A DNA stretch of 64,000 nucleotides from an uncultured Alphaproteobacteria bacterium (GCA_944391515.1 CALXTW010000007.1:3889-67888); one strand, 5' to 3'; shown: positions 4,066 to 61,362, counted from the stretch's first letter. A program made the numbers and translations. Notes: a model not told the origin generated them from the letters alone.

Positions 4066-4178
4066 GTTTATTCCCCTCGAAAAATGTGAACAGATAAAAT
4101 AATCTTTGCTAAATTTTTATAATATTTGCTATTATACGCACATAATCATTAATAAAACTTTTAAGGAATTTTTGCAAG

Positions 4179-4580: not shown

Positions 4581-5392
4581 TGCACCAAATCGCCGCCCAA
4601 ATTCGCACTCGCATAGGCAGCTTACACCCGCAAATAGCTCTAATTTTAGGCTCTGGCTTAGGTTCTCTTGCTGATTCGATTCAAGATGCCGTCACAATCA
4701 ATTACACTGACATTAACGGCTTTCCGCGCAGCACCGTCCAGGGTCACGGCGGACGTCTTATTGTCGGACGTCTCGCCGGACAAGAAGTTTTGTGCATGCA
4801 AGGACGCTTTCACTTATATGAAGGCTACCCTCCGCAAATCATTAATACCATTATTAAAGCCTTTCAGCTACTGGGAATAAAAAGTTTAATTGTCACCAAC
4901 GCCGCCGGCTCTTTAAGAAAAAAAATTGCTCCCGGAGATTTGATGCTAATCACCGATCACATCAACTTAAGCGGCACCAATCCATTAATAGGTCCCAATG
5001 ATGAGCGTTTCGGTCCTCGTTTTCCGGGGTTATCTGATGCCTACACGCTTGAATATCAAAAAAAGGCTCTCTCTGTTGCAAAATCCCTAAAAATCAAACT
5101 CAAACAAGGTGTTTATTTGTGGACATTAGGGCCGACCTTTGAAACCAAAGCCGAGATTAAAATGTTTCAAACATTAGGTGCCGACGCTGTTGGAATGTCC
5201 ACCGTTCCTGAAGTAATATGCGCCGTGCATTCGGGAATGAAAGTATTGGGCGTTTCCGTCATTACCAATTACGGAACCGGTCTGCAAAAAATCTCCCCCA
5301 GCCATGAAGAAACTCTGGCCGAAGGAGAAAAAGCCGCCCAAAATTTAAGCCGCTTAATAACTGCCTTCATCAAGGAGATGAATAATGGATGA
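4577..5392 (+). CDS. punA: purine nucleoside phosphorylase (trimeric PNP/PunA family)
   Basis: 271 aa with GSGLG...GFP..TV.GH.G.L..G...G......QGRFH.YEG and MSTVPE motifs. Confidence 0.9.
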   Translation: MMHQIAAQIRTRIGSLHPQIALILGSGLGSLADSIQDAVTINYTDINGFPRSTVQGHGGRLIVGRLAGQEVLCMQGRFHLYEGYPPQIINTIIKAFQLLGIKSLIVTNAAGSLRKKIAPGDLMLITDHINLSGTNPLIGPNDERFGPRFPGLSDAYTLEYQKKALSVAKSLKIKLKQGVYLWTLGPTFETKAEIKMFQTLGADAVGMSTVPEVICAVHSGMKVLGVSVITNYGTGLQKISPSHEETLAEGEKAAQNLSRLITAFIKEMNNG

Positions 5393-21655: not shown

Positions 21656-23704
21656 TTAATAAATTACGACTGGTCGTACTTTTCCTTTATTTGTTTTATT
21701 TACAGTCAGAAGAGGATAGCTGATATCTTCAACTTTAAAACTCCAGACACTAGAATCGCTATATTCCGTAGATGTCCAACGAAGACCTCTCAAATCTTCT
21801 TTCTTTAACACCTCTAATTGGCTATTTATAAAATGATGCAAATCTGCTATTAGTACAGCTTCTTTTGCACTTGGTACAAACCATTTTCCTTTTTTGCAAA
21901 AATCAGCCTCACAACCTTCCGGTTCAAAATTATTTACATATTGAGCCACCTCAGATGAGGCTTCACATTGCGCGTTTGCTCCTAACAACGCATTTGTATT
22001 TGCTCTTCCATTCTCACCGCAAGTCTCATAATTAGCAGACGAACAATTATCCATATTAGGCATATCACACTGCTTATTAAGCCATTTAAATTGATTTCCC
22101 AAAGAATAGGTTACATCATCTAGTGCGAGAGCCAAATGGTTTTCTTCATCAAAAACAACACCTATTGCTGTTTTACCTGGAATTATTGTTTTAGAAGTAG
22201 AACCATCTCCATACAAAATTGGTAATTTTTTAACTTTAATAATAGTTAGAACACCAAACTCACTTGTTTTAGAATTCGTTAATATGTCCCCTGTTGACAT
22301 ATTTAAAGCAAAAGCATCATTATTATCATATTCTGTGGAGGACCAAACGATACCTGAAAGACCTACAGAAACATAACGAGCCAAACCTGAAGCAGTTGCC
22401 AGAATTTGTTCTTTTAAAGAATAAATCTTTAACAAATCCCTAGTACTAGGCAAAAACCATTTTCCACTAGAACAAACTTCATTATAACAACCACCTCCAT
22501 AAGAGTGATGATAAGCATAATACCGATTAACTGCATCTGCGGCCACAGATGTTGTTCCACAGTGGATACTTGTATCTAACAAAGCATTTGTATTACTTCG
22601 TCCATCAATTCCGCACATTTCTAAATTATCTTTAGTGCAATTTTCCAAATTAGGCACATCACAAGGCTGTTTCAATAAACTCATTTTCGTACTTGCCGCC
22701 CCCATAGCATCATTTATATATGGTTGAGTTAACCCTATCGCTAAACTATTCTCATCATCATAAACAATTGCAACAACCCCACCATTAGTAGCACCTAGAT
22801 TTGGATGATAAGAAATTCTTCCTCTCTCATACAAAACAGGAAGAGGAACCTCTGTAGCGCAATATTTTTGAGAACATTCTTCTAAATCGCACACAGAACC
22901 AGTCGGACAGCTCGAAAGCGTACATTTATTTTCACAAGTTTTGCAGTTATTGTAATATTTAATCCCGTTCATCAGGCAACAGTCACTCGGTGTAACCGGC
23001 CCTAAGTCCGAACAAGTCATATTATAGCCACTTTTGCATTGGCATGAGGTATAATAGGTTACGCCGTTTTGCGTACAACCCGTCCCCACTCCTTGTTGAT
23101 TTTGCCCATCACAGGTTTGATTATAGTTACTCGGGCAAACACATTTGCTGTAATAAGTTACGCCCTCTTCGGTGCAGCCCGTTCCTTCCGGAATTTGTGG
23201 AGAGCTACACCCCGTGACAGGATATAAACTTCTGTCGCAATAACACATAAATTTACCGCCGCAGCTATCTCCGCTGACGGTATTAGGATATGAGCAAGCA
23301 CTCTTATCGTATTTATAACGACTATCGCAACATTTATCAAAATAAGCTGAATTATATGGACATTTTAAGCCGGGAAACAAGCCTGAACCGCAATTGGTCA
23401 GGCTGTAACCGTCTTTTTGGCATTGCTCAATCGTTGGGTCGCCAAAATCTATATTTCCGAAATCTAAATTTTTTCCACCAGTAATAAAAGAAACACTTGC
23501 GGTCTGAAAAGAATTACGATTAGGCAAGCCTAGATATAGGCTTGCCCCAGATAAAGGTTCAAAGGTTTGGTTTTGACAAGTTCTTACGAAGTGTATGTAT
23601 TTAGAGGTTACCGATTGTGACTGTTCATGAACACTATTTTTACTCACACCGCCCAATCCGGTTAGTGCAAGTACGGATAATCCTATCACAAGCTGCTTTC
23701 TCAT
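21656..23704 (-). CDS. secreted cysteine-rich protein with two C-terminal DUF1566-like (Lcl C-terminal-like) domains
   Basis: Signal peptide MRKQLVIGLSVLALTG (GAGG precedes the second ATG at 23704). The Cys-dense N-terminal half has repeats GTGCTEEGVTYYSKCVCPSNYNQTC / GTGCTQNGVTYYTSCQCKSGYNMTC. Two ~190-aa modules follow, ending GKWF(L/V)PS...W(S/T)STEY...VRPV. Confidence 0.8.
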   Translation of the reverse strand: MRKQLVIGLSVLALTGLGGVSKNSVHEQSQSVTSKYIHFVRTCQNQTFEPLSGASLYLGLPNRNSFQTASVSFITGGKNLDFGNIDFGDPTIEQCQKDGYSLTNCGSGLFPGLKCPYNSAYFDKCCDSRYKYDKSACSYPNTVSGDSCGGKFMCYCDRSLYPVTGCSSPQIPEGTGCTEEGVTYYSKCVCPSNYNQTCDGQNQQGVGTGCTQNGVTYYTSCQCKSGYNMTCSDLGPVTPSDCCLMNGIKYYNNCKTCENKCTLSSCPTGSVCDLEECSQKYCATEVPLPVLYERGRISYHPNLGATNGGVVAIVYDDENSLAIGLTQPYINDAMGAASTKMSLLKQPCDVPNLENCTKDNLEMCGIDGRSNTNALLDTSIHCGTTSVAADAVNRYYAYHHSYGGGCYNEVCSSGKWFLPSTRDLLKIYSLKEQILATASGLARYVSVGLSGIVWSSTEYDNNDAFALNMSTGDILTNSKTSEFGVLTIIKVKKLPILYGDGSTSKTIIPGKTAIGVVFDEENHLALALDDVTYSLGNQFKWLNKQCDMPNMDNCSSANYETCGENGRANTNALLGANAQCEASSEVAQYVNNFEPEGCEADFCKKGKWFVPSAKEAVLIADLHHFINSQLEVLKKEDLRGLRWTSTEYSDSSVWSFKVEDISYPLLTVNKTNKGKVRPVVIY

Positions 23705-23812
23705 AATATACCTCATTATAACTGAACCTTATCATGTTATAATTTAGCATAACATTCACTTAATGTCAAATAATTTTAAAATAAAGATTTTATTTTGGCT
23801 AAAGATATTAAA

Positions 23813-44307: not shown

Positions 44308-45828
44308 TTAGTCCACATTAAGAGCGTTTAACATTTCCACCACTTGAGAAGTGTAGGATTGTTTTTCTCCCCAGTTTGTAAAGCCAAAATTTTTACCTTT
44401 AGCCCAAACTTTCATCGGAGAATCTACAGATTCATATCCAGCCAACAGATGAATCAATTTGGCAATTTCCGAAGCTGTCGCCTCACACCAAAATCCATCC
44501 AAAACTTTTTCCCATTTTTTCCAAGAAATATAGTTGCAATCCTCTTCCAAGAAACTCTCCAGCACTTCCATTTGCTCATCAAAAATTTGCTCGGCATAAT
44601 CATTGAATTTCTCAAGTACCGGATAAGTTGCTATCAATTTTTTGAGTTTTAATGCAAACCACAAAGGCATTGCCTGAAAATAGCTGATATCTCCGGCCGC
44701 AAAACTTGCTGTCTTACAACAAAGCTCAAGCCATTTTTCTTCGCGTGGTGAAAAGACGCCTCGTTTCAGATAAGCATCAATATGTTCCCACTTGTCCAAT
44801 TTCAATGATTCACGGTCAATGATATGCAAACGTTCGCAAGTTTCCTCTCGCCAAGCCTCTGCAATCAGCTCTAACAAATCCAGAACTAACCTTCGATTAT
44901 CGCTGACTTTTTGTTGTACTTCAGCAAGCAAGGACAACATTTTAGCACAAGTTTCTTCGTTAGCGATTCGACTTGATAACCCCGCTATCAAATCATTTTC
45001 TCTGGCGGCATCTACAAAATCATCCAAATACGTCTCAACCAAAGCAAGTCTATCACCAATTTTGAAAGAAGGTGTATCCAAAACCTCCGACACTACTTTA
45101 CAAACTGCTGGCGACGACTTTTTCAGAGACAATATTCGCAATACTTTTTGCACCCCTTGCAAATGAAATTGTTGTTCTTCAGAGGTTAATTTCATCGGTT
45201 GTTGCCGAAAGAAGTACAGAAAATTAACATAATCAGCACAAACATCGACTGGCCTTTGCAACCGAGTCAGCCACAAATAAAGAACATCCATAGATTTCAA
45301 AGCTATCCAATACTCATCTTCGTGATACTCTTGATAAATATCCCACAGCTCTTTAACTGAAGCATCTCTCAGATTTGTTTGCTTTTTCAAAAGCTGTTCT
45401 AACACATCCAACAAAACCGGATATTGATAAGCATATTCGCTCAAAATATTCAGGAATTTGTCATTAATTGATGTATTGTGCAACAAAGACTGAACACAAG
45501 CCTTTTTACGTTCTTCATTTGCCTGTTCCTGACAATAAACTGCAGCAACAAACAAACCATACATTTTACCCGCACAATTGAGAATGTTTTTCTTAAAGCC
45601 TTCCCAACAATCATGTTTGGAATAATAAGTCAAAAACGCCTCAAACAAATGACAAGCCCATGAAGGAAACCAATCATCTACCGGAAATTTCTCTCCTTTG
45701 AGAAGGTGGTGAATCATAAAAATGAAAGCTTTTTCTTCCAATTCTTCTCTTTGAGAGTAACGGCAATTAAGCTTTTTTGCCAAACTCATCGCGTCATTAA
45801 AGACGCTTAATGCAGATTTCTTTTCCAT
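44308..45828 (-). CDS. hypothetical protein (large all-helical orphan)
   Basis: 506-aa ORF with a promoter-like TTGACA upstream and a terminator downstream. No recognised motif. Confidence 0.65.
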   Translation of the reverse strand: MEKKSALSVFNDAMSLAKKLNCRYSQREELEEKAFIFMIHHLLKGEKFPVDDWFPSWACHLFEAFLTYYSKHDCWEGFKKNILNCAGKMYGLFVAAVYCQEQANEERKKACVQSLLHNTSINDKFLNILSEYAYQYPVLLDVLEQLLKKQTNLRDASVKELWDIYQEYHEDEYWIALKSMDVLYLWLTRLQRPVDVCADYVNFLYFFRQQPMKLTSEEQQFHLQGVQKVLRILSLKKSSPAVCKVVSEVLDTPSFKIGDRLALVETYLDDFVDAARENDLIAGLSSRIANEETCAKMLSLLAEVQQKVSDNRRLVLDLLELIAEAWREETCERLHIIDRESLKLDKWEHIDAYLKRGVFSPREEKWLELCCKTASFAAGDISYFQAMPLWFALKLKKLIATYPVLEKFNDYAEQIFDEQMEVLESFLEEDCNYISWKKWEKVLDGFWCEATASEIAKLIHLLAGYESVDSPMKVWAKGKNFGFTNWGEKQSYTSQVVEMLNALNVD

Positions 45829-45934
45829 ATTTAGAATAATTTAAAAGTGAATAAAATAATAAAAATATGCTTTTATCAATAAGTCACATTGCCCATTTTG
45901 TCAAGAAAAAGGCGGAACCAAAGTTCCGCCTTTT

Positions 45935-46711
45935 TTACTCAAGATGATAATCTTTTAAATTCCATCCTTTTCGCAACAGAAGTTGCTTATTGCTTTCAGA
46001 TAAATAAGGTCTTGCATCAAAAGCAAAACCTTGCGTATCAAGGCGCTGAATAACCTTTTCCCGTAAGAGATTTGCACCCAACCAAGCCTCAATCAAACCT
46101 GTTGAGCCACAGCTAATTAACTCCTGAGCTTCATCTTCATCCAAAACCATTTTATTAAGCAACAAAATGACTTCATTTACACCTAAGAGAAAAACATTTT
46201 TCTCCCAAATCATCATTCTGAAATTTCCCAACATATCCAACCAGACATCTGTCGGACAATGAATCTGCGGCGGATAAAAAGACGCCTCTAAAGACAAATT
46301 AAGCTGCATTACAGACTTTCTTAAAAACAACATTGAAGTCTGTAATTTGATAGAGGTATGTTCAACCAAAAAAATAAAATCTTTCTTCTCTAACCCCAAA
46401 CCCTTGACCTTCTCATCAATCAACTTTTCAAGCTTGAGCTTTTTGACTTTTTTCTCAGAAAGTTTTAACACATCTCTAACTTGGGAAGCATAATCATAAT
46501 AAAGCAAATAGCGCTTAACTGTTTTTGCATTCCCGCAATCGAGTAACTTTCTCCATAAGTCATCGGGTAACCATCTCACTCTAAAGACTTGCCTAAGCTT
46601 AAAGAATTGACGTTTTTCAATCAGGTCGGCACACATTTGTGTACTGATTTGGCGCTTGTATAGACACCTCCAAAAGCATACTTCTTGCTTCAAATTTTCT
46701 AATAATTTCAT
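45935..46711 (-). CDS. hypothetical protein
   Basis: 258-aa ORF. Its stop is immediately followed by the terminator GGCGGAAC-tttg-GTTCCGCC plus a T run (minus strand). Confidence 0.6.
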   Translation of the reverse strand: MKLLENLKQEVCFWRCLYKRQISTQMCADLIEKRQFFKLRQVFRVRWLPDDLWRKLLDCGNAKTVKRYLLYYDYASQVRDVLKLSEKKVKKLKLEKLIDEKVKGLGLEKKDFIFLVEHTSIKLQTSMLFLRKSVMQLNLSLEASFYPPQIHCPTDVWLDMLGNFRMMIWEKNVFLLGVNEVILLLNKMVLDEDEAQELISCGSTGLIEAWLGANLLREKVIQRLDTQGFAFDARPYLSESNKQLLLRKGWNLKDYHLE

Positions 46712-46867
46712 CTTCCAAAAAATTTAAATTACACAATAAGAATTAATCACTCACAAAATAAAGTCTTTTATGTATCATGTCAAACATTTTCTCTATTTTG
46801 TCTATTGATTCTCTCAAAATATTATGTTACAAAAACTGCAATAACTTTATTTTTAATTTTATATATT

Positions 46868-47746
46868 ATGAAACGAAAAAACCTTACGGTCACTGTCACT
46901 CATGTAGGACACCCGTACCCAGAATTCCAAGGAGGTAAAACACCTCAAATTTCCATTGCTGTTTTAGCAGAAAACAATTATTTCTGTTTTCCGGCCTCTC
47001 CCCTAAGCATGCTTATCCAAAAGGGAGATACAATAACCGTCACCCCTGCGGGAGAGCTCAAAAAGGTCAATAATTTAGAGATTAACGCGCTCGTTAACCT
47101 TTCAGAATTCGACGGAACAATAGACAGAGTATCCCACCCTTTGTGGTTAAAAAATCCACATACAAACTTTAACAGCTTATATGTGGTCATCATGACACAA
47201 GGAAACATTTTTCCGGTAAAAGCCAATTGGAATACCTTGCTTCTCAGAAGTGGCGACAATATTACATTGGAGCTCGACAACTATGAAATCCTCAAATTCA
47301 AAAACAAAACTCTAAAATTTGAGTTCAATGCCACCTCCAAACAAGCAATATCACTAAAAGGAAAAATCAAACGCGCAACATTTCCCTTAATGTGGCCCAA
47401 CCACCAAGGAATCATGGGATTAAAATCATTAGTGTTAATGGAAGACCTAAAATTCAAAATTCTTCCTGCAACACCGGAATCAATGTTTTTGGAAGATGGC
47501 GACAGGGTAGAAATTAGTGATAAGAGTATAAAGAATGCACGCATTCCGCAAATTCGTTTTCTTGACAGTGCCTTGCCGGAATATTACGAGGTAAAATACA
47601 TCGGACATCCATTTCCGACCTTGTTTTCCAATGGGCAAAAATCTCTGGGGCGTTTTCTTATAACCCCAAACAATGAGCTCTATCTCGTTCCAGCAACTGA
47701 GACAAATATGCTCACCCAACCGGGAGACAAGATTATTAATTTTTAA
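46868..47746 (+). CDS. hypothetical protein made of four tandem ~75-aa repeats
   Basis: Start taken at the ATG at 46868 (MKRKNLTV...). The repeats begin VTHVGHPYPEF..., IDRVSHPLWLK..., IKRATFPLMWP... and VKYIGHPFPTL..., and each ends in a (P)GD.I motif. Confidence 0.65.
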   Translation: MKRKNLTVTVTHVGHPYPEFQGGKTPQISIAVLAENNYFCFPASPLSMLIQKGDTITVTPAGELKKVNNLEINALVNLSEFDGTIDRVSHPLWLKNPHTNFNSLYVVIMTQGNIFPVKANWNTLLLRSGDNITLELDNYEILKFKNKTLKFEFNATSKQAISLKGKIKRATFPLMWPNHQGIMGLKSLVLMEDLKFKILPATPESMFLEDGDRVEISDKSIKNARIPQIRFLDSALPEYYEVKYIGHPFPTLFSNGQKSLGRFLITPNNELYLVPATETNMLTQPGDKIINF

Positions 47747-47839: not shown

Positions 47840-48289
47840 CTATTTGGCTTCGCTTTCAGCTTTTTCAGCAGCTTCAATAGCAGCTTTTTCAGCAGCAACG
47901 CGAGCTTTATCAGCAGCACCTTTAGCGTTTACATCACGATCAACCAATTCAATGATAGCCATCGGAGCAGCATCGCCATAACGAATACCAGCTTTCAAAA
48001 CGCGGGTATAACCACCGTTACGAGATTTATAGCGTTCAGCCAAAGTAGAGAAAAGCTTAGAAACAACAGTTTCGTCACGCAAGAAAGCCAAAGCCAAACG
48101 ACGAGAATTTAAATCACCTTTTTTAGCATAGGTAATCATGTTGTCAGCAAAAGTTCTCAAAGCTTTAGCACGCGGCAAAGTAATATTGATTTGCTCATGG
48201 GTCAACAAAGCATTTGTTAAGTTAGAGAACAAAGCTCTTCTTTGACTTCTGGTCATATTCAATTTTTTTTGTTTCATTCCATGTCTCAT
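47840..48289 (-). CDS. rplQ: 50S ribosomal protein L17
   Basis: [24 protein letters not shown]..., starting at the ATG at 48289 after AGGAAG, with an A/E/K-rich C-terminal tail. Confidence 0.95.
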
Positions 48290-48479: not shown

Positions 48480-49196
48480 TCATAATTTTACAAACAGATG
48501 TGTTGGACAATTATCACCAATTGTACCATATCTGTTTTTAGCCGACAATTGCCAAACCACATAGGGGGCGTGAGCCGCCACGGGCGCAACCATCCAACTA
48601 AAAAGATCTGAAACCGTTGGAGCATCAACTGCTTTCAGCAATTCATCAATCTCGTTGAAATGCTGCTCCATTAGTTTGGAATCTTCTCTTGTCAGGAACT
48701 CTAACTTTAACTCCTTAGCCTTCCTAATTACTTCTTTAGGCATCGCCGGGATCCAACACACTCCAGCAAAAATTAGATTTTGCGAAAGTGCAATGCCACG
48801 ATATCGACCGGATTTTTCAACTATCAGATAGGGATAGTCTCTTTCCGTATCATTCACCAAATCCTTAAGATTATCGACACCTATTCCGTTTGGCACTTCC
48901 AAATGATTAATATTTTCAGAAACACGACAAATCGGAAATTTAATTGTAAACAAATGCTTTCTTAAGACATCCAACACTTGTTGATCGTGGTCTTTATAAG
49001 GAGCATAGCCTCTTGGCACAAAATCCTGAAAAGCTTCGTAGACTTTTTTCCAATTAGCTTTTTCTGCCCACTTCTGCCATTCTTCTACCGACTGATTACG
49101 CAATGGCATAACACCAGCCTTACTTGTCTTTTTTCCAAACATAATTATAAAAATTAAATTAACAAATAATAAAAAATTTATTCTCGTATATCTCAT
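48480..49196 (-). CDS. hypothetical membrane-anchored protein
   Basis: ORF with N-terminal hydrophobic anchor MRYTRINFLLFVNLIFIIMF. The ATG at 49196 is preferred to the track TTG at 49205. Confidence 0.55.
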   Translation of the reverse strand: MRYTRINFLLFVNLIFIIMFGKKTSKAGVMPLRNQSVEEWQKWAEKANWKKVYEAFQDFVPRGYAPYKDHDQQVLDVLRKHLFTIKFPICRVSENINHLEVPNGIGVDNLKDLVNDTERDYPYLIVEKSGRYRGIALSQNLIFAGVCWIPAMPKEVIRKAKELKLEFLTREDSKLMEQHFNEIDELLKAVDAPTVSDLFSWMVAPVAAHAPYVVWQLSAKNRYGTIGDNCPTHLFVKL

Positions 49197-49213
49197 TTTA
49201 GACAAAAAAGCAA

Positions 49214-49259: not shown

Positions 49260-49952
49260 TCAAAACTCTCTCCAAAAAACCGGACGCACAAAACCACCGA
49301 CACGAGCCTTAAGAAATACTTGTTTTTGAGCATCCGCAAGACGTACCAGAACTGCACTTGTTTCATCTGCTTCATTCGAACTCCAATACAAACCTGATAA
49401 GCTCACCAAATCTAGTTCTTTCAAGGCCTTATTAATCCGTTCTTTATTGTCTGAAATTTTAATCAATTCATAGGTTGACGGCAAAAAAGCCTCACCAGCA
49501 TTCAGTCCATTTTGAGCAAAATCATAACACCACTCTGCAGCTTCCGCTTTCAAACGACGCTCTTTGGTTTCCGCTAAAATATTCTGCGTAGCTATAGCTC
49601 CGTCTAATTCTTTCTGATTGAGTTTCACCCTCAAAGCGGATGTTGACCAAGGCAAACGTTTTTCCTCCAAACAAACGGCTAAAAAACGCTTTCCCTCTAC
49701 ATACACAATTATACCTTTGACGACTTTATCATCTCTGATGTCAAAAGAAAAAGTGTTATCCTCATAACAGAACATTCCCGAGCAAGGCAATTTCTCTTGA
49801 TGAGTTTCATCATCATTGTTTTGTCCTACTTGAGAAAAAGCCACTTTGTTATCAGTTTTGACTTTAGTTTCAAAATAGCGAAAAACTTCCTGAGGAGAAA
49901 GCCCTAGTCTTTGGGCATACTTAAATAACTTTACAAATTTTTCTTGTTCCAT
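49260..49952 (-). CDS. DUF1566-like (Lcl C-terminal-like) protein, cytoplasmic-type paralogue
   Basis: 230 aa with GMFCYEDNTFS, LPWS, GEAFLPSTYEL, YWSSNE and a VRPVFW end. Homologous to 55990-56538 and to the C-terminal modules of 21656-23704. Confidence 0.75.
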   Translation of the reverse strand: MEQEKFVKLFKYAQRLGLSPQEVFRYFETKVKTDNKVAFSQVGQNNDDETHQEKLPCSGMFCYEDNTFSFDIRDDKVVKGIIVYVEGKRFLAVCLEEKRLPWSTSALRVKLNQKELDGAIATQNILAETKERRLKAEAAEWCYDFAQNGLNAGEAFLPSTYELIKISDNKERINKALKELDLVSLSGLYWSSNEADETSAVLVRLADAQKQVFLKARVGGFVRPVFWREF

Positions 49953-50283
49953 AAACTAAATAATTAAAGGGTTAATAATATAATTATGATGCATAAGTAT
50001 TATAAAAACTTCAATTTGTAAACCATAAAAACACACTTCGCAAAAGAACCAATGAGCAAACCATGCTTACGACAGGTAACACAGAGAGCAACGCAAAGAT
50101 ATGGCACTTCTGTCTTGGTTACTCTAGAGATTTTCTGTAATAATAGATATCCTCGAGTAAACTTGAGGTTCTAAATCAGCTACAAACCAACGGTTTGAGC
50201 ACGCTAAAGGCGGGGAGCGGTGTTGTTCCAACACCTCGTCATTCAGCCCCGATTAAACTCGGTGTTTTCTATAAGGCTAATAA

Positions 50284-50318
50284 TAAAAAAGCCTTCAAGC
50301 TAATGCTCAAAGGCTTTT
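50284..50318 (-). terminator. rho-independent terminator after rpoA (hairpin could also terminate plus-strand transcription)
   Basis: AAAAGCCTT...AAGGCTTTT stem with A/T runs on both sides, 20 nt downstream of the rpoA stop. Confidence 0.75.
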
Positions 50319-50337
50319 GTAATTTTCAAACTTTCAA

Positions 50338-51348
50338 TTAGAAGTGCTCATCACAACGTTTGATAAGTTCTTCAATGTTTTCAGGCGGCCAACCCGGAGT
50401 ATCCATACCCAAATGAATACCCATCTTAGCCAAAACTTCCTTAATTTCATTCAAAGACTTACGACCGAAGTTCGGAGTACGCAACATTTCAGCTTCAGTT
50501 TTTTGAACCAAATCACCGATATAGATAATATTGTCGTTCTTCAAGCAGTTAGCAGAACGAACTGACAATTCAAGTTCTTCAACCTTCTTCAAGAGATTAC
50601 GATTGAACGGTAATTCTTCTTTTTCAGCTTCAACTTCAGCTTCCGGTTCATCAAAGTTAATGAACGGTTTGAGTTGGTCTTGCAAAATGCGAGCTGCAAA
50701 GGCAACAGCATCTTCAGGAGAAACGACACCGTTAGTATCAACAATCATTGTCAACTTATCATAGTCAGTAACTTGACCGACACGAGTATTTTCAACTTTG
50801 TAAGATACTTTTTTAACCGGAGAATAAATTGCATCAACAGCAATAACACCGATAGGAGCATCGGCAGACTTATTCATGCTAGCCGGAACATAACCTTTAC
50901 CGGTATTAACTGTTAATTCCATATTGATTTTTGCACCGGCATCCAGATTGCAAATAACCAAGTCAGGATTTTTAATTTCAACATCATGACCGGCATCAAT
51001 CATAGCTGCGGTAACCTGACAAGGTCCTTCAGCTTTCAACGTCATGGTTTTAGAACCTTCGCTGTGAACAGCAACGGCCAAACATTTAACGTTGAGAACG
51101 ATATCAGTAACATCTTCTCTGACACCCGGGATAACCGAAAATTCATGCAAAACACCGTTAATTTTGATAGCGGTGACTGCGCCGCCTTGTAAAGAAGAAA
51201 GCAAAACTCTTCTCAAAGCGTTACCTAAAGTTAAACCAAAACCTCTTTCCAAAGGTTCGACCACGATTTTGGCTCTGTTTCCGCCTTCGCTGGGCACAAC
51301 TTCCAAATTCGTTGGTTTAATAAGTTCTTGCCAATTTTTTTGAATCAC
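50338..51348 (-). CDS. rpoA: DNA-directed RNA polymerase subunit alpha
   Basis: 336 aa with an N-terminal domain ([14 protein letters not shown]) and a C-terminal domain (LELSVRS.NCL). Confidence 0.97.
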
Positions 51349-52364: not shown

Positions 52365-53036
52365 TTATGCAACAGCCAATAAATCGTCCACCTTTTTGGA
52401 AGTTGCCTCGATTGTACCCGTTCCATCCACACAGCGGAGCAACCCTTTTTTCTCAAAATAAGGGATTGTCGGATAAGTCAAAGCGCGATAATTGACGAGT
52501 CGATTCTGTACGGTTGAACGATTATCATCAACCCTACGATAAAAATCCGTTCCGCCACAAACATCACAAACCCCGTAAACCTTTGGTTTTTGGAATTTAT
52601 CATGATATCCGGCACCGCAAGTCATGCAAGAATAACGGCCTAAAATTCGTTCCATAATAATTTCATCAGGAACTTGAATCTCAATCACGGCATCCAGCTT
52701 AATCCCTTTCTTGGAGAGCATTTCCTCCAAAACTTCGGCCTGAGGCAAAGTTCTTGGAAAGCCATCCAAAATAAAGCCGTTTTTGCAATCATCTTGGTCG
52801 ATTCGCTCAGAGAGCATTTTGATAATCATCTCATCAGGAACCAAATTTCCGCCATCAATCAACTCTTTGATTTCTAGTCCCAAAGGTGTACCTTTAGCAG
52901 CCTCTGCACGAAGCATCTCACCAGTTGAAAGGTGTGCAATAGCGATTTTTTCTTTCAGGATTCTCGCTTGTGTACCTTTACCGCAGCCGGGAGCTCCGGT
53001 AAAAACAATATGCAAACCCAAACCGTTAGCGTTCAT
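52365..53036 (-). CDS. adk: adenylate kinase (Cys4 zinc-lid type)
   Basis: GAPGCGKGTQ P-loop; lid C..C...C..C. Confidence 0.95.
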   Translation of the reverse strand: MNANGLGLHIVFTGAPGCGKGTQARILKEKIAIAHLSTGEMLRAEAAKGTPLGLEIKELIDGGNLVPDEMIIKMLSERIDQDDCKNGFILDGFPRTLPQAEVLEEMLSKKGIKLDAVIEIQVPDEIIMERILGRYSCMTCGAGYHDKFQKPKVYGVCDVCGGTDFYRRVDDNRSTVQNRLVNYRALTYPTIPYFEKKGLLRCVDGTGTIEATSKKVDDLLAVA

Positions 53037-54388
53037 TATCTTCTCTTCCCTCTGTTAGCAAGAGCGGCTTTTTTGATTAAACCTTCATATTGATAAGCAA
53101 TCAAATGAGATTGAAGCTGACCAACAAAATCCATGGTAACTTGAACCACGATGAGCAAAGTTGTACCACCCAAAACGAACGGAACAGATAATTTACTGAT
53201 GAGGATTTCAGGCAAAATACACAAAGCCGTAAGATAAGCAGCACCCAAAACAGTCAAACGAGTGATAACATAATCCAAATAGTCAGCAGTATTTTTACCC
53301 GGGCGAATACCGGCAATAAAGCCACCATGTTTCTTCAAGTTTTCTGCTGTTTCTTCAGGGTTAAACACAACTGCTGTATAGAAGAAAGCAAAGAAAATAA
53401 TCAAAGCGGCATACAAGCTCAAATACAAAGGTTGACCATGCCCCAACAACTGGCTGAGTGTTTGTACCCAAGACGGACCATTTTCAGCTGAGAAATTAGC
53501 GATAGTAATCGGCAACAACAACAATGAGCTGGCAAAAATCGGCGGAATAACACCTGTCGGGTTAATTTTGAGCGGCAAGTGGGAATTTTCGCTAGCCATC
53601 ATTCTGGCACCCATTTGGCGTTTTGGATATTGGATGGTGATTTTGCGTTGAGCTCTTTCAACCAAAACAATCACATAAATCAAAGCCAAAACCATAACCA
53701 TCAACATTGCAATGACGCCCAAAGACATAGAGCCAACACGACCCAATTCAAAAGTTTGCGCCAAAGCACTCGGAATATTAGCAATAATACCGACAGTAAT
53801 GATTAAGGATGAGCCATTTCCGACACCTCTAGAGGTAATTTGGTCGCCAAGCCAAACAATAAACATTGTTCCACCCACGAGAGAAACCACGGTTGTAAAC
53901 TTAAAGACAAAACCAGGGTTAACCACGGCCGAAACACCGGCACTACCGGTCATTCCTTCCAAACCGACAGCAATACCGTAACCTTGAATAATCGTAATCA
54001 AAACAGTCAACATTTTGGTATAATGGGTCATTCTGCGATGACCGGCTTCACCATCTTTTTTCAAAGCAGCCAAAGACGGTATAACAGATTGTCCCAATTG
54101 CAAAATGATTGATGCCGAGATATAAGGCATAATGTTCAAAGCAAAGATGGTCATACGTTCCAAAGCACCACCGGCAAACATATTAAACATACCCAAGATG
54201 CCGTTGGAGTTACGTGCAAAAATATCCGACAAGATATGAGGATCAATTCCCGGCAACGGAATAAACGTTCCCAAACGGAACACCACCAAAGCCAACACCG
54301 TAAACCAAAGTCTTTTTTTCAATTCGGTAGCTTTGCTAAAAGCCGACACATCCATATTTGCGGCCATTTTTTCTGCCAATGATACCAT
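53036..54388 (-). CDS. secY: preprotein translocase subunit SecY
   Basis: 450 aa, 10-TM profile, with GIDP and the NIMPYISASII plug region. Confidence 0.96.
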   Translation of the reverse strand: MVSLAEKMAANMDVSAFSKATELKKRLWFTVLALVVFRLGTFIPLPGIDPHILSDIFARNSNGILGMFNMFAGGALERMTIFALNIMPYISASIILQLGQSVIPSLAALKKDGEAGHRRMTHYTKMLTVLITIIQGYGIAVGLEGMTGSAGVSAVVNPGFVFKFTTVVSLVGGTMFIVWLGDQITSRGVGNGSSLIITVGIIANIPSALAQTFELGRVGSMSLGVIAMLMVMVLALIYVIVLVERAQRKITIQYPKRQMGARMMASENSHLPLKINPTGVIPPIFASSLLLLPITIANFSAENGPSWVQTLSQLLGHGQPLYLSLYAALIIFFAFFYTAVVFNPEETAENLKKHGGFIAGIRPGKNTADYLDYVITRLTVLGAAYLTALCILPEILISKLSVPFVLGGTTLLIVVQVTMDFVGQLQSHLIAYQYEGLIKKAALANRGKRR

Positions 54389-54658
54389 TTTTACTTCCTT
54401 ATTATTTAATAAACTGAGATGATGAGGAATACACTTCCTCCATTATGCTAAGATATTAATACACTAAAAAATTTTTAATTCAACTAAATTATCCAGCAGT
54501 TGCACAGTTTCCCTCAAAAAAAGCACCTTTATCTTTAATTTTGGAAAAGATACAATTTTTACCCTCATACATACGCCTAAATAACTCTTTACATCTCAAA
54601 CAAATTACCTTATAAGCATTGCACAACTTTTATTATTAATGTTAAATAATTTGACTTT

Positions 54659-55186
54659 ATGGAAAAAAGAACAAAAAAATTGAACTATCAGCTTCTCCAT
54701 GTGTATCAGACCAACAGTCCAATACTTTGCACTGAAGCAAACTTCAAACGCTTGTTTAAAGAGTCTTACGCGCAAGCAATCATCCACTTTTCGATTGACT
54801 TGCAAGAAATGTTTGGGTTAGATCCTCTGTTTAATCAACCTGAAAAACAAGCCGAGCAAAAAGCCAAAATAAAGGCTCTGTTCTGCTCTTGCTTTAAGGA
54901 ATTTCTGGACGAACAAGATCTTTTCCGTGAAACTTTAAAATATCTCATCTCCGGAACTGTAATGGCTTATAATTTTGCTTATGGTTTCAAACTCTATTCA
55001 CTCTTCAAAAAAGATGAACGCTTGGAGCTGGAGGGTAAGCGACTTTTCATTTCCAGAATAGAGTCCAACCTCCTTTCTCAGCACTATGAGAAAAACCCAT
55101 TACAAAAAACTCTGGATGACGAAGGAACACAAAGTCTTGAACAAGCTCTGCAAACAAAGCTGTCACACTACAAAATCTTTGCTTAA
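54659..55186 (+). CDS. hypothetical protein (opposite strand to the ribosomal operon)
   Basis: 175-aa ORF closed by a strong terminator. No recognised motif. Confidence 0.55.
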   Translation: MEKRTKKLNYQLLHVYQTNSPILCTEANFKRLFKESYAQAIIHFSIDLQEMFGLDPLFNQPEKQAEQKAKIKALFCSCFKEFLDEQDLFRETLKYLISGTVMAYNFAYGFKLYSLFKKDERLELEGKRLFISRIESNLLSQHYEKNPLQKTLDDEGTQSLEQALQTKLSHYKIFA

Positions 55187-55190
55187 ACAC

Positions 55191-55226
55191 AAAAAAGAGT
55201 GGTTTGTTTTTTCAAACCACTCTTTT
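55191..55226. terminator. bidirectional terminator
   Basis: Perfect 12-bp stem AAGAGTGGTTTG-tttttt-CAAACCACTCTT with A/T runs on both sides. Confidence 0.85.
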
Positions 55227-55246
55227 GCATTTTTGGAGAATCTGCA

Positions 55247-55492
55247 TTAGTAGCCTCGGCTACGTTTTCTTAAGGCGTATACCCCTAAACATCCCAGAGC
55301 CAACGTCGCAAACGCACCTCCTACAAAGAAGATATTTGCCGCCAGTTCCATATTGTTTTTTACTCCGGCAATCCAAAATGCAACAATTGCCACTTCTGAG
55401 ATTGTCACAAAGGCCCAGAAGATTTTTTCCAACTTTTCCATGTTTTTTTTAATTTTATGAGGCTCTACCATATTTTTAGACGGCCTTACCAC
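55247..55492 (-). CDS. small two-TM membrane protein
   Basis: 81-aa ORF (alternative ATG at 55441) with two hydrophobic helices and a basic C-terminus. Confidence 0.5.
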   Translation of the reverse strand: MVRPSKNMVEPHKIKKNMEKLEKIFWAFVTISEVAIVAFWIAGVKNNMELAANIFFVGGAFATLALGCLGVYALRKRSRGY

Positions 55493-55502
55493 AATTGTCT
55501 AA

Positions 55503-55540
55503 ATAAAAAAAAGAGCCTGGACTTTTCAATCCAAACTCTT
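55503..55540 (-). terminator. rho-independent terminator; copy 1 of a 34-nt repeat (55507-55540)
   Basis: On the minus-strand RNA, AAGAGUUUGGA pairs fully with UCCAGGCUCUU (two G-U pairs) and is followed by a U run. On the plus strand the same positions are A-C mismatches. Confidence 0.75.
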
Positions 55541-55550
55541 TCCATTCAAA

Positions 55551-55808
55551 CTAAAACTCATCCCCCAAAAAAAGACGAGGAAAAGATTTTGGCTCTGAAG
55601 ACCAAAAACGTCTTCTAGCTTTTTCTCTTTCAACCTCCTCGGCGGCAAGAATTTGCTCCCTTGTAATGGGGGTATACAAACCGTGTCCATCAGGGAAAAC
55701 TTGTGCAATTACTCCCTTCAACTCCTTGCCATTTTCTAATTCTTTTGAGAATGTTCCATCTTGATAAAGATACATTCCTACTTCCGGCTGATTTTTTTTT
55801 GTTTCCAT
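55551..55808 (-). CDS. collapsed DUF1566-like paralogue (possible pseudogene)
   Basis: 85 aa. It keeps the family N-terminus (GMYLYQDGTFSKEL..GKELKGVIAQV) and a C-terminal FWSSE trace, but lacks the ~100-aa core. Confidence 0.45.
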   Translation of the reverse strand: METKKNQPEVGMYLYQDGTFSKELENGKELKGVIAQVFPDGHGLYTPITREQILAAEEVEREKARRRFWSSEPKSFPRLFLGDEF

Positions 55809-55945
55809 AATTTTTAATTTTATGAGGCATCTATCCTAACTTGTATAGAACGAAACCTCGGGTTAATAAATTCATAATTCTTATTTCTCTGAAATGTAAT
55901 ATACCACACTTTTAACCCTCGCACAAGCGTTTTTTGTCCATATTT

Positions 55946-55980
55946 CAAAAAAGAGTCTGGACTTTTCAATCCAAACTCTT
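55946..55980 (-). terminator. rho-independent terminator; copy 2 of the 34-nt repeat (55947-55980)
   Basis: Identical to 55507-55540 at 33 of 34 positions, immediately downstream of the 55990 stop. Confidence 0.75.
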
Positions 55981-55989
55981 TTATTCTAA

Positions 55990-56538
55990 CTAAAAAGCGA
56001 CCCAGAAAACCGGTCGAACATGGCGCAAAGCGGTTTTATCTTCATACCAAGCATGCCCATTATACATTCGTACTTTCCACACTTCTCCAAAATTACATTC
56101 TCGAGATGACCAATGCCATCCGTCCATCTCGGGCATTTTCAAGCACTTCAAGGCACGATTAATAGTAAAATAATGCTCACTTAATTTTTGTAATTCATCA
56201 TCAAAAGGTAAAAAAGCCTCTCCTTTATTAACCCCATCTTGATGATACTCCACACACCATAAAGCCGCTTCAGATAAAGAATCTGAATTTTGCATGGCTT
56301 TCAAAATTTTCTCGGTGGCTGCTTTCCCATTCCGAACCAACCGAATATCAAAGACCATCAAGCCACTACTGGACCATGGCAATTTTTTCTCATGCAAACA
56401 AACCACCAGAGCCCGATGTGCTTCAACATACCCTACAATACCGCTAACAGTTTTTCCTGTCACTAATTCTTCAGAAAATGTTCGGTCCTCATAACAAAAC
56501 ATCCCCGGTTTCACTCTAAAGTTCTTTTCCATAATCAA
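55990..56538 (-). CDS. DUF1566-like (Lcl C-terminal-like) protein, cytoplasmic-type paralogue
   Basis: 182 aa with GMFCYEDRTFS, LPWSSS, GEAFLPFDDEL, WHWSSRE and a VRPVFW end. Confidence 0.75.
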   Translation of the reverse strand: MIMEKNFRVKPGMFCYEDRTFSEELVTGKTVSGIVGYVEAHRALVVCLHEKKLPWSSSGLMVFDIRLVRNGKAATEKILKAMQNSDSLSEAALWCVEYHQDGVNKGEAFLPFDDELQKLSEHYFTINRALKCLKMPEMDGWHWSSRECNFGEVWKVRMYNGHAWYEDKTALRHVRPVFWVAF

Positions 56539-56596
56539 TAATTTTAGAATAATAAATATTTTAAGAGTCCTATATCATATTTTGTCACCATTGCAA

Positions 56597-56628
56597 CAAA
56601 AAAACCTCTCCCATGAGGAGAGGTTTTT
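56597..56628 (-). terminator. rho-independent terminator directly after rplO
   Basis: AAAACCTCTCC-catga-GGAGAGGTTTT, with the T run on the minus strand, 20 nt after the rplO stop. Confidence 0.8.
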
Positions 56629-56647
56629 ATTTCTAAGCTCTTGTCGA

Positions 56648-57106
56648 TTAAGCTTCGATAAGGGTAACTTTACCACCTGCTTTTTCAACAGCGGCAATAG
56701 CAGCCTTAGAAGCAGAATTAACAGAAACGTTAACTTTGCTGGTGATAGCACCGCGAGCCAACAAACGAACACCGTCCAAGCTCTTGGTAACGATACCGGC
56801 ACTCATCAAAGAAGCCAAATCGATAGCATCGGCAGACAATTTTCCGGCATCAACAGCTTTTTGAATAGTATCCAAGTTAACAACTGCGAATTCTTTAGCA
56901 AACGGATTTTTGAAACCACGTTTCGGCAAACGACGATAAATCGGCATTTGACCACCTTCAAAACCGTGTACGGCAACACCTGAACGAGACTTTTGACCTT
57001 TTTGGCCACGTCCGCAAGTTTTACCTTTGCCGCTTCCGATACCGCGACCAACGCGAATACGGCGGGAGGTAGCACCTTCGTTGTCTTTTAATTCATTAAG
57101 TTTCAT
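56648..57106 (-). CDS. rplO: 50S ribosomal protein L15
   Basis: [12 protein letters not shown]...GRG.GSGKGKT.GRG.KGQ. The ATG at 57106 with AAGGTG 6 nt upstream is preferred to the track GTG at 57115. Confidence 0.96.
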
Positions 57107-57235
57107 TTTTTTCACCTTAATCTACATCTGTGGTTTTGATAAGGAGGTGTGCTGCGCCGTTAATTTTTTTCGCCGTGTACAAATAGCTACACAAGAACAA
57201 AAATTAACCAGCATGACACCCCCTTTGCAAAACCC

Positions 57236-60196: not shown

Positions 60197-60206
60197 AAAA
60201 TTTCTC

Positions 60207-60530
60207 CTATTTCTTCTCGATTACTTCACCGGATTTACGAGCAAAGCGGACTTTGTTTCCGTTTACTTCTTTGTAACCAACTTTGCTGGCTTTACCTGAT
60301 TTCGGGTCAACGATAGCAACGTTGGAAACATTGATCGGGGCTTCTTTGGTGATAATGCCGCCCGGGGTAGTTTGGCTGGGTTTGGTGTGTCTTTTAACCA
60401 AGTTAACACCTTGAACAACCACTTTACCTTCGCTAGGCATAGCTTTAACAACTTCACCAGTTTTACCTTTGTCATCACCAGCGATGACAATGACCTGATC
60501 ACCTTTTTTGATTTTCATTTTAAGGCTCAT
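60207..60530 (-). CDS. rplX: 50S ribosomal protein L24
   Basis: [19 protein letters not shown] motif. An alternative start lies at 60518. Confidence 0.95.
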
Positions 60531-60898
60531 TACAATACCTCCGGTGCCAATGAAATTATTTTCATAAATTTCTTCGCACGCAATTCTCTGGTAACAGGGC
60601 CAAAGATACGAGTACCGATTGGCTCACCGTCTTTATTGATGAGAACTGCAGCATTATTATCAAAGCGGATAACGGAACCGTCTTTGCGTCTAATGTCGCT
60701 TGCTGTGCGAACGATTACAGCTTTGCATACGTCGCCTTTTTTAACGCGTCCTTTCGGTAAAGCGTCTTTAATAGAAACGACGATAACATCACCCACAGAA
60801 GCATGCATTCTCTTGGAGCCTCCAAGAACCTTAATGCACTGCACCTGACGTGCTCCTGAATTATCTGCAACATCCAGGTTGGTTTGCATCTGTATCAT
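60530..60898 (-). CDS. rplN: 50S ribosomal protein L14
   Basis: 122 aa starting MIQMQT.L.VADNSGA. Confidence 0.98.
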
Positions 60899-60916
60899 TG
60901 TTTTACTTCCTTTTCT

Positions 60917-61153
60917 CTAGGCGTTATCACTGACAACAGTCCAAGTCTTGGTTTTAGAATAAGGTCTAGATTCTTCAATCTTAACGATATCACCAACTTT
61001 GAACTGATTATTTTCATCATGAGCAGCAAATTTTTTGCTTCTCTTAACGAACTTCTTATAAACAGGGTGCATAACCTGACGCTCTACGCTGACCACGACA
61101 GTTTTATCCTGTTTATCACTAACAACAACACCTTGAAGAATTCTTTTAGGCAT
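60917..61153 (-). CDS. rpsQ: 30S ribosomal protein S17
   Basis: 78 aa with the typical S17 motifs. Confidence 0.96.
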
Positions 61154-61164
61154 ATCTTTTTCTC

Positions 61165-61362
61165 CTAATTATTCTTCTTGCGCTCAGCGAGGAGCGTGTT
61201 GATTTTTGCTATTTCACGACGGACACTTCTTATTACAGCAGTATTTTGTAATTGTCCAGTAGATTGTTGTATTCTTAAGTTAAATTGTTCTTTTTTCTTT
61301 TCGAGCAATTTAGCTTCCAACTCATCTGATGACATAGCACGAAGATCTTTAATTTTTAACAT
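61165..61362 (-). CDS. rpmC: 50S ribosomal protein L29
   Basis: 65 aa with L..EL..LRFQ-like motif. Confidence 0.95.

Follow-up and report, generated by a model that had tools for sequence, protein, structure and literature searches.

The S10-spc-alpha ribosomal gene cluster is a textbook case of gene order that resists rearrangement, and rplO-secY and rpoA-rplQ are among the most conserved adjacencies. How, then, do rplO and secY come to lie more than 2 kb apart, and what allows them to do so? The question is raised by a 64,000-nucleotide (nt) stretch of DNA from an uncultured Alphaproteobacteria bacterium (GCA_944391515.1, CALXTW010000007.1:3889-67888), which we call the window and which carries the cluster on its minus strand. 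Here rplO (56648-57115, minus strand), which encodes ribosomal protein L15 and stands last among the ribosomal protein genes of spc, is separated from secY (53036-54388, minus strand, followed by adk at 52365-53036) by 2,259 nt (54389-56647). The gap contains four open reading frames (ORF1 to ORF4, numbered from the rplO side) and three hairpin terminators. From rplB to rplO, the genes lying wholly within the window are spaced by 2-14 nt or overlap slightly, except for rpmD-rplO (120 nt), according to a filtered ORF map in which the rplX-rpmC stretch (about 60197-61361) is unresolved. The initial annotation of the window read the gap as a cassette of orphan genes that had severed the spc operon. 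The broken adjacency is confirmed. We consider it likely, however, that the rplO-secY junction is a lineage-specific operon boundary that has turned into a gene-turnover hotspot, rather than the site at which a mobile cassette recently split an operon.

The arrangement in independent assemblies

Since the window comes from a metagenome-type genome and several of its ORFs are orphans, a chimeric contig linking rplO and secY through unrelated DNA has to be considered. The identical layout is nevertheless present in one ENA assembly (L001) and in two Logan assemblies (L002 and L003) from different runs. The gene order is also that of L010, a strain about 96-98% identical from a different project, and parts of the layout are seen in eight or more additional contigs. 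Both junctions recur, rplO-ORF1 in L002, L003, and L010 and ORF4-secY in L001, L010, L090, and L092. The genes in the gap are also under selection. Between the window and L010, the ratio of nonsynonymous to synonymous divergence (dN/dS) is 0.18 for ORF1 and 0.15 for both ORF3 and ORF4, so these three are real protein-coding genes under purifying selection; the ratio for ORF2 is 0.32, from only nine differences. We therefore rejected misassembly, whose probability is negligible given the recurrence of the layout in independent assemblies.

Gene turnover at the rplO-secY junction

We measured the rplO-secY distance in 80 loci, using sequences of 13 kb or less around secY. Our clade set consists of the 28 loci with secY at least 78% identical to that of the window (27 of them at least 80%). 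In distant alphaproteobacteria (SecY no more than 73% identical), the two genes are 46-517 nt apart in all 50 loci in which both were found, and among the loci measured the wide gap is confined to the clade. There, rplO is adjacent in seven loci (110-280 nt), and ten have a filled slot of 973-4,752 nt. In six others secY is unlinked, with no rplO in at least 5.5 kb upstream; what precedes it instead is rpsD, pilin-like genes preceded by nusG, a lon-like gene, or other genes. Four more loci have genes other than rplO upstream of secY in the shorter sequence available and are thus not adjacent, and one (L020) is uninformative because its upstream sequence is too short. The rplO gene itself is 99% identical between the window and L010 and 53-94% identical across the other loci where it was found, except L084 (42%).

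About ten different cargos occupy the slot, next to the seven empty ones. Among relatives, the cargo includes an HTH_3 regulator, a NUDIX protein together with a peptidase of family S51, a methyltransferase, and several large proteins without a family match. Because both the size of the gap and its unrelated cargo vary among genomes of the clade, the pattern is that of a gene-turnover hotspot and not of a single insertion. In L012, the cargo (3030-5345) is a gene for a 771-amino-acid (aa) protein that consists nearly entirely of ankyrin repeats, a eukaryote-like domain type. Ankyrin repeats in other bacteria are frequently tied to host interaction.

The genomes nearest by SecY are gut metagenome-assembled genomes (MAGs), including Candidatus Scatocola faecipullorum (97%). 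Other near MAGs are labelled "uncultured Azospirillum sp.," "Alphaproteobacteria," or "Rhodospirillales" and come from chicken, ruminant, human, and other guts. Three MAGs with SecY 81-86% identical (L025, L030, and L036) bear the titles Lactobacillus sp., Lactobacillaceae, and Bacteroidaceae, probably through mis-binning or mislabelling.

Terminator and secY promoter-like element in relatives with an empty slot

An intrinsic terminator follows rplO at 56597-56628 (minus strand), with a perfect stem formed by two 12-nt arms (56600-56611 and 56617-56628) and then a T-run, as the initial annotation had proposed. Nearly all clade relatives, short-gap and long-gap alike, have an equivalent terminator. 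On the other side of the gap, the 270-nt spacer ahead of secY, in which the secY-adk promoter must lie, contains a promoter-like element (54456-54483, minus strand) composed of a -35 box TTGAAT (54478-54483), a 16-nt spacer, and a -10 box TATTAA (54456-54461) with a TG ahead of it. A generic promoter scan missed this element, whose -10 box is without the final T. It is kept in 23 of 25 clade loci, whatever sits upstream, including loci in which rplO is adjacent. The promoter had been placed correctly in the spacer, but the assumption that it is a new one is not supported.

In four short-gap relatives (L019, L022, L023, and L026), where rplO and secY are 175-280 nt apart, a canonical intrinsic terminator is already present 3' of rplO, and secY has the element TTGAAT or TTGCAA followed by a 16-17-nt A+T-rich spacer and then TGTATTAA, as well as the 5' hairpin described below. 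The presence of both the terminator and the promoter-like element in relatives with an empty slot argues that the split came before the cargo, and the division of spc into a unit ending with rplO and a secY-adk unit appears to be ancestral to the clade. The cassette said to have severed an intact operon thus finds no support. Tolerance of the insertion, which had been left unexplained, would follow because the transcriptional split predates the cargo.

The secY leader has a structure of its own. A G+C-rich stem-loop of 4-8 bp near its 5' end (54424-54440 in the window, minus strand) stands at a fixed offset from the -10 box in about 24 of 25 loci, although the stem sequences differ; it is followed by a GTTTTAAA-like sequence and by an AAGGA ribosome-binding site. 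The whole leader element (54424-54483, minus strand) is found at the same position in 23-24 of 25 clade loci (among L010-L037) and has no match in Rfam. The hairpin may be an mRNA-stabilising or regulatory 5' stem-loop.

A composite cargo

All four ORFs are present where the initial annotation had placed them, with two starts refined. Read from rplO, the interval after the terminator opens on the minus strand with a promoter-like element and leader (56547-56596), made up of TTGCAA (56591-56596), TGnTATAGG (56569-56577), and the leader motif TTTATTATTC (56547-56556). These precede ORF1 (55990-56532, minus strand), an N-terminally shortened stand-alone member of the DUF1566/Lcl_C (C-type-lectin-like) family, whose start is more likely the ATG at 56532, as called in three other assemblies, giving 180 rather than 182 aa. 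The terminator hairpin 3' of ORF1 (T1, 55947-55981, minus strand) is 97% identical to the one 3' of ORF2 (T2, 55507-55541, minus strand), a repeat of 35 nt. Between T1 and ORF2 are a promoter-like element, TTGTGC-N17-TATATT with TG upstream (55898-55926, minus strand), and an 18-nt leader, GCCTCATAAAATTAAAAA (55811-55828, minus strand). ORF2 (55551-55808, minus strand, 85 aa) is an internally deleted, collapsed paralogue of ORF1, as first described: it matches positions of about 37-73 of the ORF1-family profile, and its alleles in L010 and L091 also match about 199-213, the C-terminal end. It may be a decaying remnant.

An exact second copy of the 18-nt leader (55446-55463, minus strand) precedes ORF3 (55247-55441, minus strand), which most likely starts at the ATG at 55441, where its homologues are called and which follows the leader it has in common with ORF2. 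Its product is then 64 aa instead of the 81 aa proposed at first, and inspection predicts a hairpin of two transmembrane helices; scans of family libraries gave no match. ORF3 and ORF4 converge on a bidirectional intrinsic terminator (55193-55226) with T-runs on each strand; that terminator had been recognized before, but its stem (55193-55206 and 55213-55226) is a perfect 14 bp, not 12 bp. ORF4 (54659-55186, plus strand, 175 aa) is an all-helical orphan divergent from secY.

The four ORFs had been taken for one module, a view that strain comparison does not support. The order rplO-ORF1-ORF2-ORF3-ORF4-secY is that of the window, L001-L003, and L010. L092-L095 have rplO-ORF3-ORF4-secY, without ORF1 and ORF2, and in L096 a 215-aa full-length member of the ORF1 family stands between rplO and ORF3-ORF4. 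ORF3 is paired differently again in L011, where an 83-aa ORF lies between it and secY, and in L018, where an ORF3-like gene is followed by a 675-aa ORF and secY. Because ORF3 is present in all of these strain types, it appears to be the oldest resident of the slot, with ORF4 as its usual convergent partner within the species group. Indeed, no other occupant is kept as widely: homologues of ORF3 are found at this junction in L010 (77% identical at the amino-acid level), L011 (61%), L018 (47%), and every contig that bears ORF4.

ORF4 is much rarer. Only 8 representative clusters were found among 1.84 billion proteins; its 13 clusters are all at least 70% identical, and wherever the contig includes the neighbouring DNA, ORF4 is convergent with ORF3. 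Its AlphaFold2 model is all-helical (predicted local distance difference test [pLDDT], 74.5), and a fold search against the PDB returned no meaningful match (best E = 2.3), nor did family scans recognize a DNA-binding domain. ORF4 is thus an orphan, as first stated. Two distant homologues are known. One (38% identical; L103, 1558-2133) is divergent from an rpsF-rpsR-rplI operon, mirroring the position of ORF4 relative to secY; this may be mere chance, or it may point to a regulator of highly expressed operons. The other, in L102, has an unrelated context.

How the ORF2 unit may have come to lie between ORF1 and ORF3 can be read from the strains that lack it. TTGTGN-N17-TATATT with TG upstream precedes ORF3 itself in L092, which has neither ORF1 nor ORF2, and in L096, and comparison with L092-L095 identifies the region preceding ORF2 in the window (55809-55989) as the native upstream region of ORF3. 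That this region now stands ahead of ORF2 suggests that the ORF2 unit was interposed by duplication or recombination, and the element at 55898-55926 would here act as a promoter for ORF2. The 18-nt and 35-nt repeats, which bracket the unit of ORF2 plus terminator and mark the junction of a duplication or recombination, are conserved far better than the two coding regions beside them. Flanking direct repeats had been reported as absent, and around the whole 2.2 kb we likewise found no attachment-like terminal repeats; the repeats that do exist are purely internal, around ORF2.

Comparison with L010 suggests that the cargo has a history different from that of its flanks. The upstream ribosomal protein genes are 98-100% identical between the two strains and secY-adk-rpsM-rpsK-rpoA 92.5-100%, whereas identity from mid-ORF1 through ORF4 is 78-94%, except for the ORF2 block (99.5%). 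Synonymous divergence (dS) is 0.97 for ORF3 and 0.61 for ORF4, versus 0.03 for rplO, 0.08 for secY, and 0.20 for adk. Similarly, in L092-L094 the 3' end of rplO is 99-100% identical to that of the window and ORF4 just 73-74%, with ORF1 and ORF2 missing. Low identity and high dS between near-identical flanks point to mosaicism as from homologous recombination. Exchange of cargo by homologous recombination in the conserved flanks fits this arrival pattern, for which the initial annotation had offered no explanation; the same route has been proposed for many hotspots devoid of mobile elements (PMC5635113). The faster divergence of the 3' half of ORF1 between strains also prompted us to consider a diversity-generating retroelement targeting the C-type-lectin fold; we dropped this candidate, as there is no template repeat of the variable region in the interval (the other ORFs of the window were not scanned for reverse transcriptase).

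Marks of a mobile element were sought as well. Scans with Pfam, PHROGs, PADLOC, and NCBIfam found no integrase, transposase, or recombinase domain in the cargo ORFs, the 64-kb window has no tRNA gene, and no other phage genes were seen in it near the cargo, in agreement with the earlier statement that transposase, integrase, and tRNA are absent. Rfam 15 gave no match at the gathering score in the 64 kb and, at E <= 1, just hairpin look-alikes (terminator hairpins). PADLOC and NCBIfam had zero matches for any ORF; in particular, neither the four cargo ORFs nor the pair in the second slot described below matched a defence model of PADLOC-DB 2.0. Pfam matches to the slot ORFs were all below threshold, and PHROGs gave weak matches of unknown function only: phrog_4245 for ORF1 (E = 2e-6) and its paralogue, and phrog_21159, marginally, for a 241-aa ORF of the second slot (E = 0.056).

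A second break between rpoA and rplQ

The window has another broken junction, which the initial annotation did not mention: about 2,050 nt lie between rpoA (50338-51348) and rplQ (47840-48289). Clade loci in which both were found have them 220-2,981 nt apart, compared with 14-176 nt for alphaproteobacteria outside the clade; the other clade loci showed no downstream rplQ, several of these contigs ending too early to judge. The gap in the window holds a full-length ORF1 paralogue of 230 aa (49260-49952, minus strand), 44% identical to ORF1 (tblastn E = 1.7e-39) and matched by the family profile at E = 2.5e-96, although its score against Pfam Lcl_C (14.5 bits) is below threshold. An orthologue lies downstream of rpoA in L090. 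Adjoining the paralogue, upstream of rplQ, is a 241-aa orphan (48480-49205, minus strand) to which library scans assigned no family. A terminator follows rpoA, a promoter-like element precedes rplQ, and the paralogue and the orphan each have a terminator of their own. The rpoA-rplQ junction appears to be a second hotspot behaving like rplO-secY.

After the rpoA terminator comes a 385-nt non-coding stretch (49953-50337) with a higher G+C content than the sequence around it and without a match in Rfam. A structured RNA in this spacer was not supported (folding z-score, -0.87), and it is possibly a decayed gene remnant.

ORF1 and its lectin-like family

ORF1 had been called DUF1566-like from its sequence, and this assignment holds at the level of the family and of the fold, whereas ORF1 itself does not reach the Pfam threshold. 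Against Lcl_C (PF07603) it scores 17.6 bits (E = 0.005; gathering threshold, 34.9), but 54 of 66 family members match Lcl_C at E <= 0.01, the best at 1.8e-9. Conversely, the ORF1-family profile matches the sequence of the C-terminal domain (CTD) of Legionella Lcl (8q4e) at E = 0.003 and also Bacteroides ovatus BACOVA_04982. The AlphaFold2 model of ORF1 (pLDDT, 95.2; predicted template-modelling score [pTM], 0.90) was compared with known structures by Foldseek, in which BACOVA_04982 (4eps; E = 4.5e-6, template-modelling [TM] score 0.73) and Lcl-CTD (8q4e_A; E = 8.7e-6) were each matched with a probability of 1.00, followed by many snake-venom C-type-lectin-like chains. The match over the whole length was to distal domains of gut-phage tail fibres (TM score 0.85, E = 5e-15, root mean square deviation 2.7-2.9 Å over 187-189 columns). 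By fold, the family has a beta-sandwich plus a C-type-lectin-like (DUF1566/Lcl_C) module, and ORF1 would be a module binding a ligand such as a glycan or receptor.

The family, an uncharacterised gut-alphaproteobacterial subfamily of DUF1566/Lcl_C proteins, comprises more than 166 protein clusters, mostly of 210-250 aa. Full-length members begin with a segment of about 35 aa (MEKKEKLE.L...LGLS..EV..Y), which is probably helical, and continue with a linker, a PGMF.Y.D beta-region, and the C-terminal DUF1566 motifs; ORF1 is without the N-terminal segment. By inspection, no N-terminal signal peptide is evident in the family, and neither ORF1 nor its relatives have collagen repeats. The window also encodes a 686-aa protein (21656-23716, minus strand) with an apparent N-terminal signal (by inspection), Cys-rich repeats, and two C-terminal Lcl_C/DUF1566 domains. 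This protein passes the Lcl_C threshold (36.9 bits) and is matched by the ORF1-family profile at E = 3e-24; it looks like the classical exported form of DUF1566, and this genome thus encodes it alongside forms in which no signal peptide is evident.

Outside the rplO-secY slot, family members occur at several sites, singly or in arrays counting up to five paralogues, immediately behind the terminators of tuf, ppdK, carD, and rpoA. Between tuf and dxs there is one copy in L101, three in L107, and four in L099, and after tuf in L004 a five-gene array running to the contig end has three profile-positive paralogues. A 6-7-gene array between ppdK and pal in L100 includes two profile-positive paralogues, and single copies lie between carD and apaG in L105 and, as noted above, between rpoA and rplQ in the window and L090. 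The tuf-dxs interval is another copy-number-variable slot; beyond the family genes comes dxs in place of the S10 operon, and S10 is there no longer linked to str. Identity between paralogues of the same array is 64-81%, which indicates that the arrays arose by recent tandem duplication. We found no similarity among the 241-aa ORF and the non-family ORFs of the arrays that would reveal a second paralogue family.

We aligned the upstream regions of 18 family members from about ten genomes or sites (including L004, L099, L100, L101, L105, L107, and L108). Most of them have a common architecture: a T-run, often belonging to the terminator of the preceding gene, then TTGCAA, about 16 nt, a -10-like element, a near-invariant TATTATTAAT, and about 15-20 nt before the ATG. 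The TATTATTAAT leader is AU-rich, and family leaders have no Shine-Dalgarno sequence. ORF1 shares this architecture at 56547-56596. The conserved element would act as a promoter, and the family genes are probably co-regulated; such a control region suggests that they form a regulon under one regulator or that their translation is initiated in an unusual way. We also considered that these genes hitch-hike on strong upstream promoters by read-through. This idea is weakened by the intrinsic terminator that stands before the family gene at every site and by the conserved promoter-like element that each has of its own; since the genes carry their own control region, read-through from upstream operons is not required.

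Explanations for the rplO-secY gap

We propose the following scenario. In the ancestor of the clade (Candidatus Scatocola and the "uncultured Azospirillum" MAGs), the spc unit would already have ended at a terminator after rplO, and secY-adk would by then have been transcribed from a promoter of its own, with a structured 5' leader. An insertion between the terminator and that promoter would leave both units undisturbed, and the highly conserved flanks would serve as good anchors for homologous recombination, through which the slot could gain, lose, and swap cargo. In the window, the cargo would have two parts: an older, more stable pair, ORF3 and ORF4 (the latter a helical, presumably cytoplasmic orphan), and two copies, ORF1 and ORF2, of a self-contained unit of promoter, AU-rich leader, coding sequence, and terminator.

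Some observations weigh against this interpretation. Terminator efficiency, promoter activity, and the secY start site are read from sequence and conservation. Covariation in the secY hairpin is weak, MAFFT/RNAalifold giving three mostly invariant G-C pairs, though per-sequence folds are consistent. Part of the divergence seen in the cargo could stem from relaxed constraint and not from imported alleles, yet it is dS that is raised, not dN alone. ORF3 is kept at the junction in several diverged genomes, which leaves room for a link to secY that a neutral slot does not predict. For the ORF1 family, the absence of an evident signal peptide (by inspection) sits uneasily with a role as an adhesin, and its preference for sites after highly expressed genes rests on five distinct sites and could be explained by gene density or strand bias.

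A recent discrete mobile cassette (integron-like, MITE [miniature inverted-repeat transposable element]-like, or phage derived) that cut an intact spc operon and forced a new secY promoter into being would account for the DUF1566-like genes as self-contained units with a conserved upstream architecture, several sites, and tandem arrays. It would also suit the exact 18-nt and 97%-identical 35-nt hairpin repeats bracketing the ORF2 unit and the resemblance of ORF1 to phage tail-fibre tips and to phrog_4245. We regard it as unlikely, however: relatives with an empty slot have the terminator and the secY promoter-like element, which puts the split before the cargo; the four ORFs are not found as a fixed set in the strains, and a four-gene unit as a whole is already largely refuted; and the 2.2 kb is flanked by neither integrase, transposase, or tRNA genes nor attachment-like terminal repeats, with no other phage genes nearby. 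A bolder version concerns the ORF1 family alone. Its members could be co-regulated, self-propagating single-gene units that colonise terminator-proximal sites behind top-expressed operons (tuf, rplO, rpoA, ppdK, and carD) and thereby pried open the ribosomal supercluster. Their products could be receptor-binding subunits assembled or exported without a signal peptide, for example, interchangeable tips for an apparatus resembling a gene transfer agent, a tailocin, or a fibre, or else host-glycan binders. This too we hold to be improbable.

Nor do we expect, except as a rather slim chance, that the cargo is functionally tied to its neighbours, with ORF3, ORF4, or both working with SecY or the translation genes or controlling them; ORF3 could, for example, be an accessory or monitoring substrate of Sec and ORF4 a regulator of the divergent secY promoter. 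The retention of ORF3 homologues at the junction in the diverged L018 (47%) and in L011 speaks for such a tie, as do the invariably divergent position of ORF4 across a common 270-nt control region and its 38% homologue divergent from rpsF-rpsR-rplI. Yet ORF3 and ORF4 are absent from most members of the clade, including those with an empty slot, the bidirectional terminator insulates ORF3 from secY, and ORF4 has neither a recognisable DNA-binding domain nor a fold match, besides having another distant homologue in an unrelated context. Defence genes often reside in hotspots, and one could picture a defence or toxin-antitoxin islet with ORF3, short and with two predicted transmembrane helices, as a hydrophobic toxin, ORF4 as its partner, and ORF1, similar to phage receptor-binding tips, as a decoy receptor-binding protein; the high allelic diversity would fit as well. 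But no ORF has a PADLOC match, convergent genes with separate promoters are atypical of toxin-antitoxin pairs, and L011 and L018 have ORF3 without ORF4, which makes an islet of this kind highly unlikely. An operon boundary that became a turnover hotspot is thus the explanation we favour.

Relation to known systems

Integration of new genes favours the edges of operons, and many hotspots are free of mobile elements, with recombination in the core genes on either side (Oliveira, Touchon, Cury & Rocha 2017, PMC5635113). The rplO-secY slot resembles those hotspots in being a fixed interval between core genes with differing accessory genes, no mobile element, a position at an operon edge, and possible signs of recombination in the flanks. 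It differs in lying inside S10-spc-alpha, at the normally intra-operonic junctions rplO-secY and rpoA-rplQ, and in having opened only through the terminator and promoter that this lineage would have there. A survey of Gammaproteobacteria and Bacilli described small multigene insertions into the cluster, with parts of operons later fully disconnected in some descendants; most of the insertions detailed in that survey lie between operons, nrdHEF being one case inside the rpoBC operon, and secY was outside spc in one species only, Bacillus selenitireducens (PMC8046335). The range seen here, from empty slot to filled slot to unlinked secY, is similar. Unlike those cases, it involves a whole alphaproteobacterial gut clade with repeated turnover at rplO-secY and rpoA-rplQ. 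Our literature search found no earlier description of this split in gut Alphaproteobacteria, an absence that is not proof of novelty.

The DUF1566 domain of Legionella Lcl is a C-type-lectin-like, trimeric, glycosaminoglycan-binding head, and Lcl is secreted by the type II system (PMC11162425). The ORF1 family shares the C-type-lectin-like fold with Lcl-CTD (8Q4E) and BACOVA_04982 (4EPS), together with the motifs (F/W)LPS..EL, YWSS, and a terminal VRPV. In contrast to both, its members are short (180-250 aa) and stand alone; no signal peptide is evident in them by inspection, they have neither a collagen stalk nor a fimbrial shaft, and the full-length ones carry the N-terminal segment of about 35 aa. 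The distal receptor-binding domains with DUF1566 of gut phage tail fibres are closer, being the best structural match over the whole length and likewise having no evident signal peptide. Phage fibres, however, are proteins of 400-1,400 aa with shaft and attachment domains, whereas the relatives of ORF1 are chromosomal and multi-copy, have promoter-like elements of their own, and do not lie beside phage structural genes.

What is unusual here is the combination of two normally intra-operonic ribosomal junctions, recurrence across a gut clade, and a slot-occupying family that is lectin-like and similar to fibre tips. Relaxing the constraint on the cluster appears to need a terminator and an internal promoter, which make the junction an operon edge, and the clade offers a natural system for asking why co-transcription of rplO-secY and of rpoA-rplQ otherwise persists. 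For practical purposes, synteny-based annotation or checks of bin quality that take the adjacency of rplO and secY for granted will go wrong with these gut alphaproteobacteria. With its variable copy number and common control region, the lectin-like, fibre-tip-like family is a candidate mediator of contacts with host or phage in this little-known, uncultured gut lineage.

The neighbourhood of the cluster may hold more genes of this sort. Downstream of rplQ, at 44308-47746, are ORFs of 506, 258, and 313 aa, of which the two that were scanned (258 and 313 aa) gave no match in Pfam; the run may be further lineage-specific cargo adjoining the ribosomal cluster.

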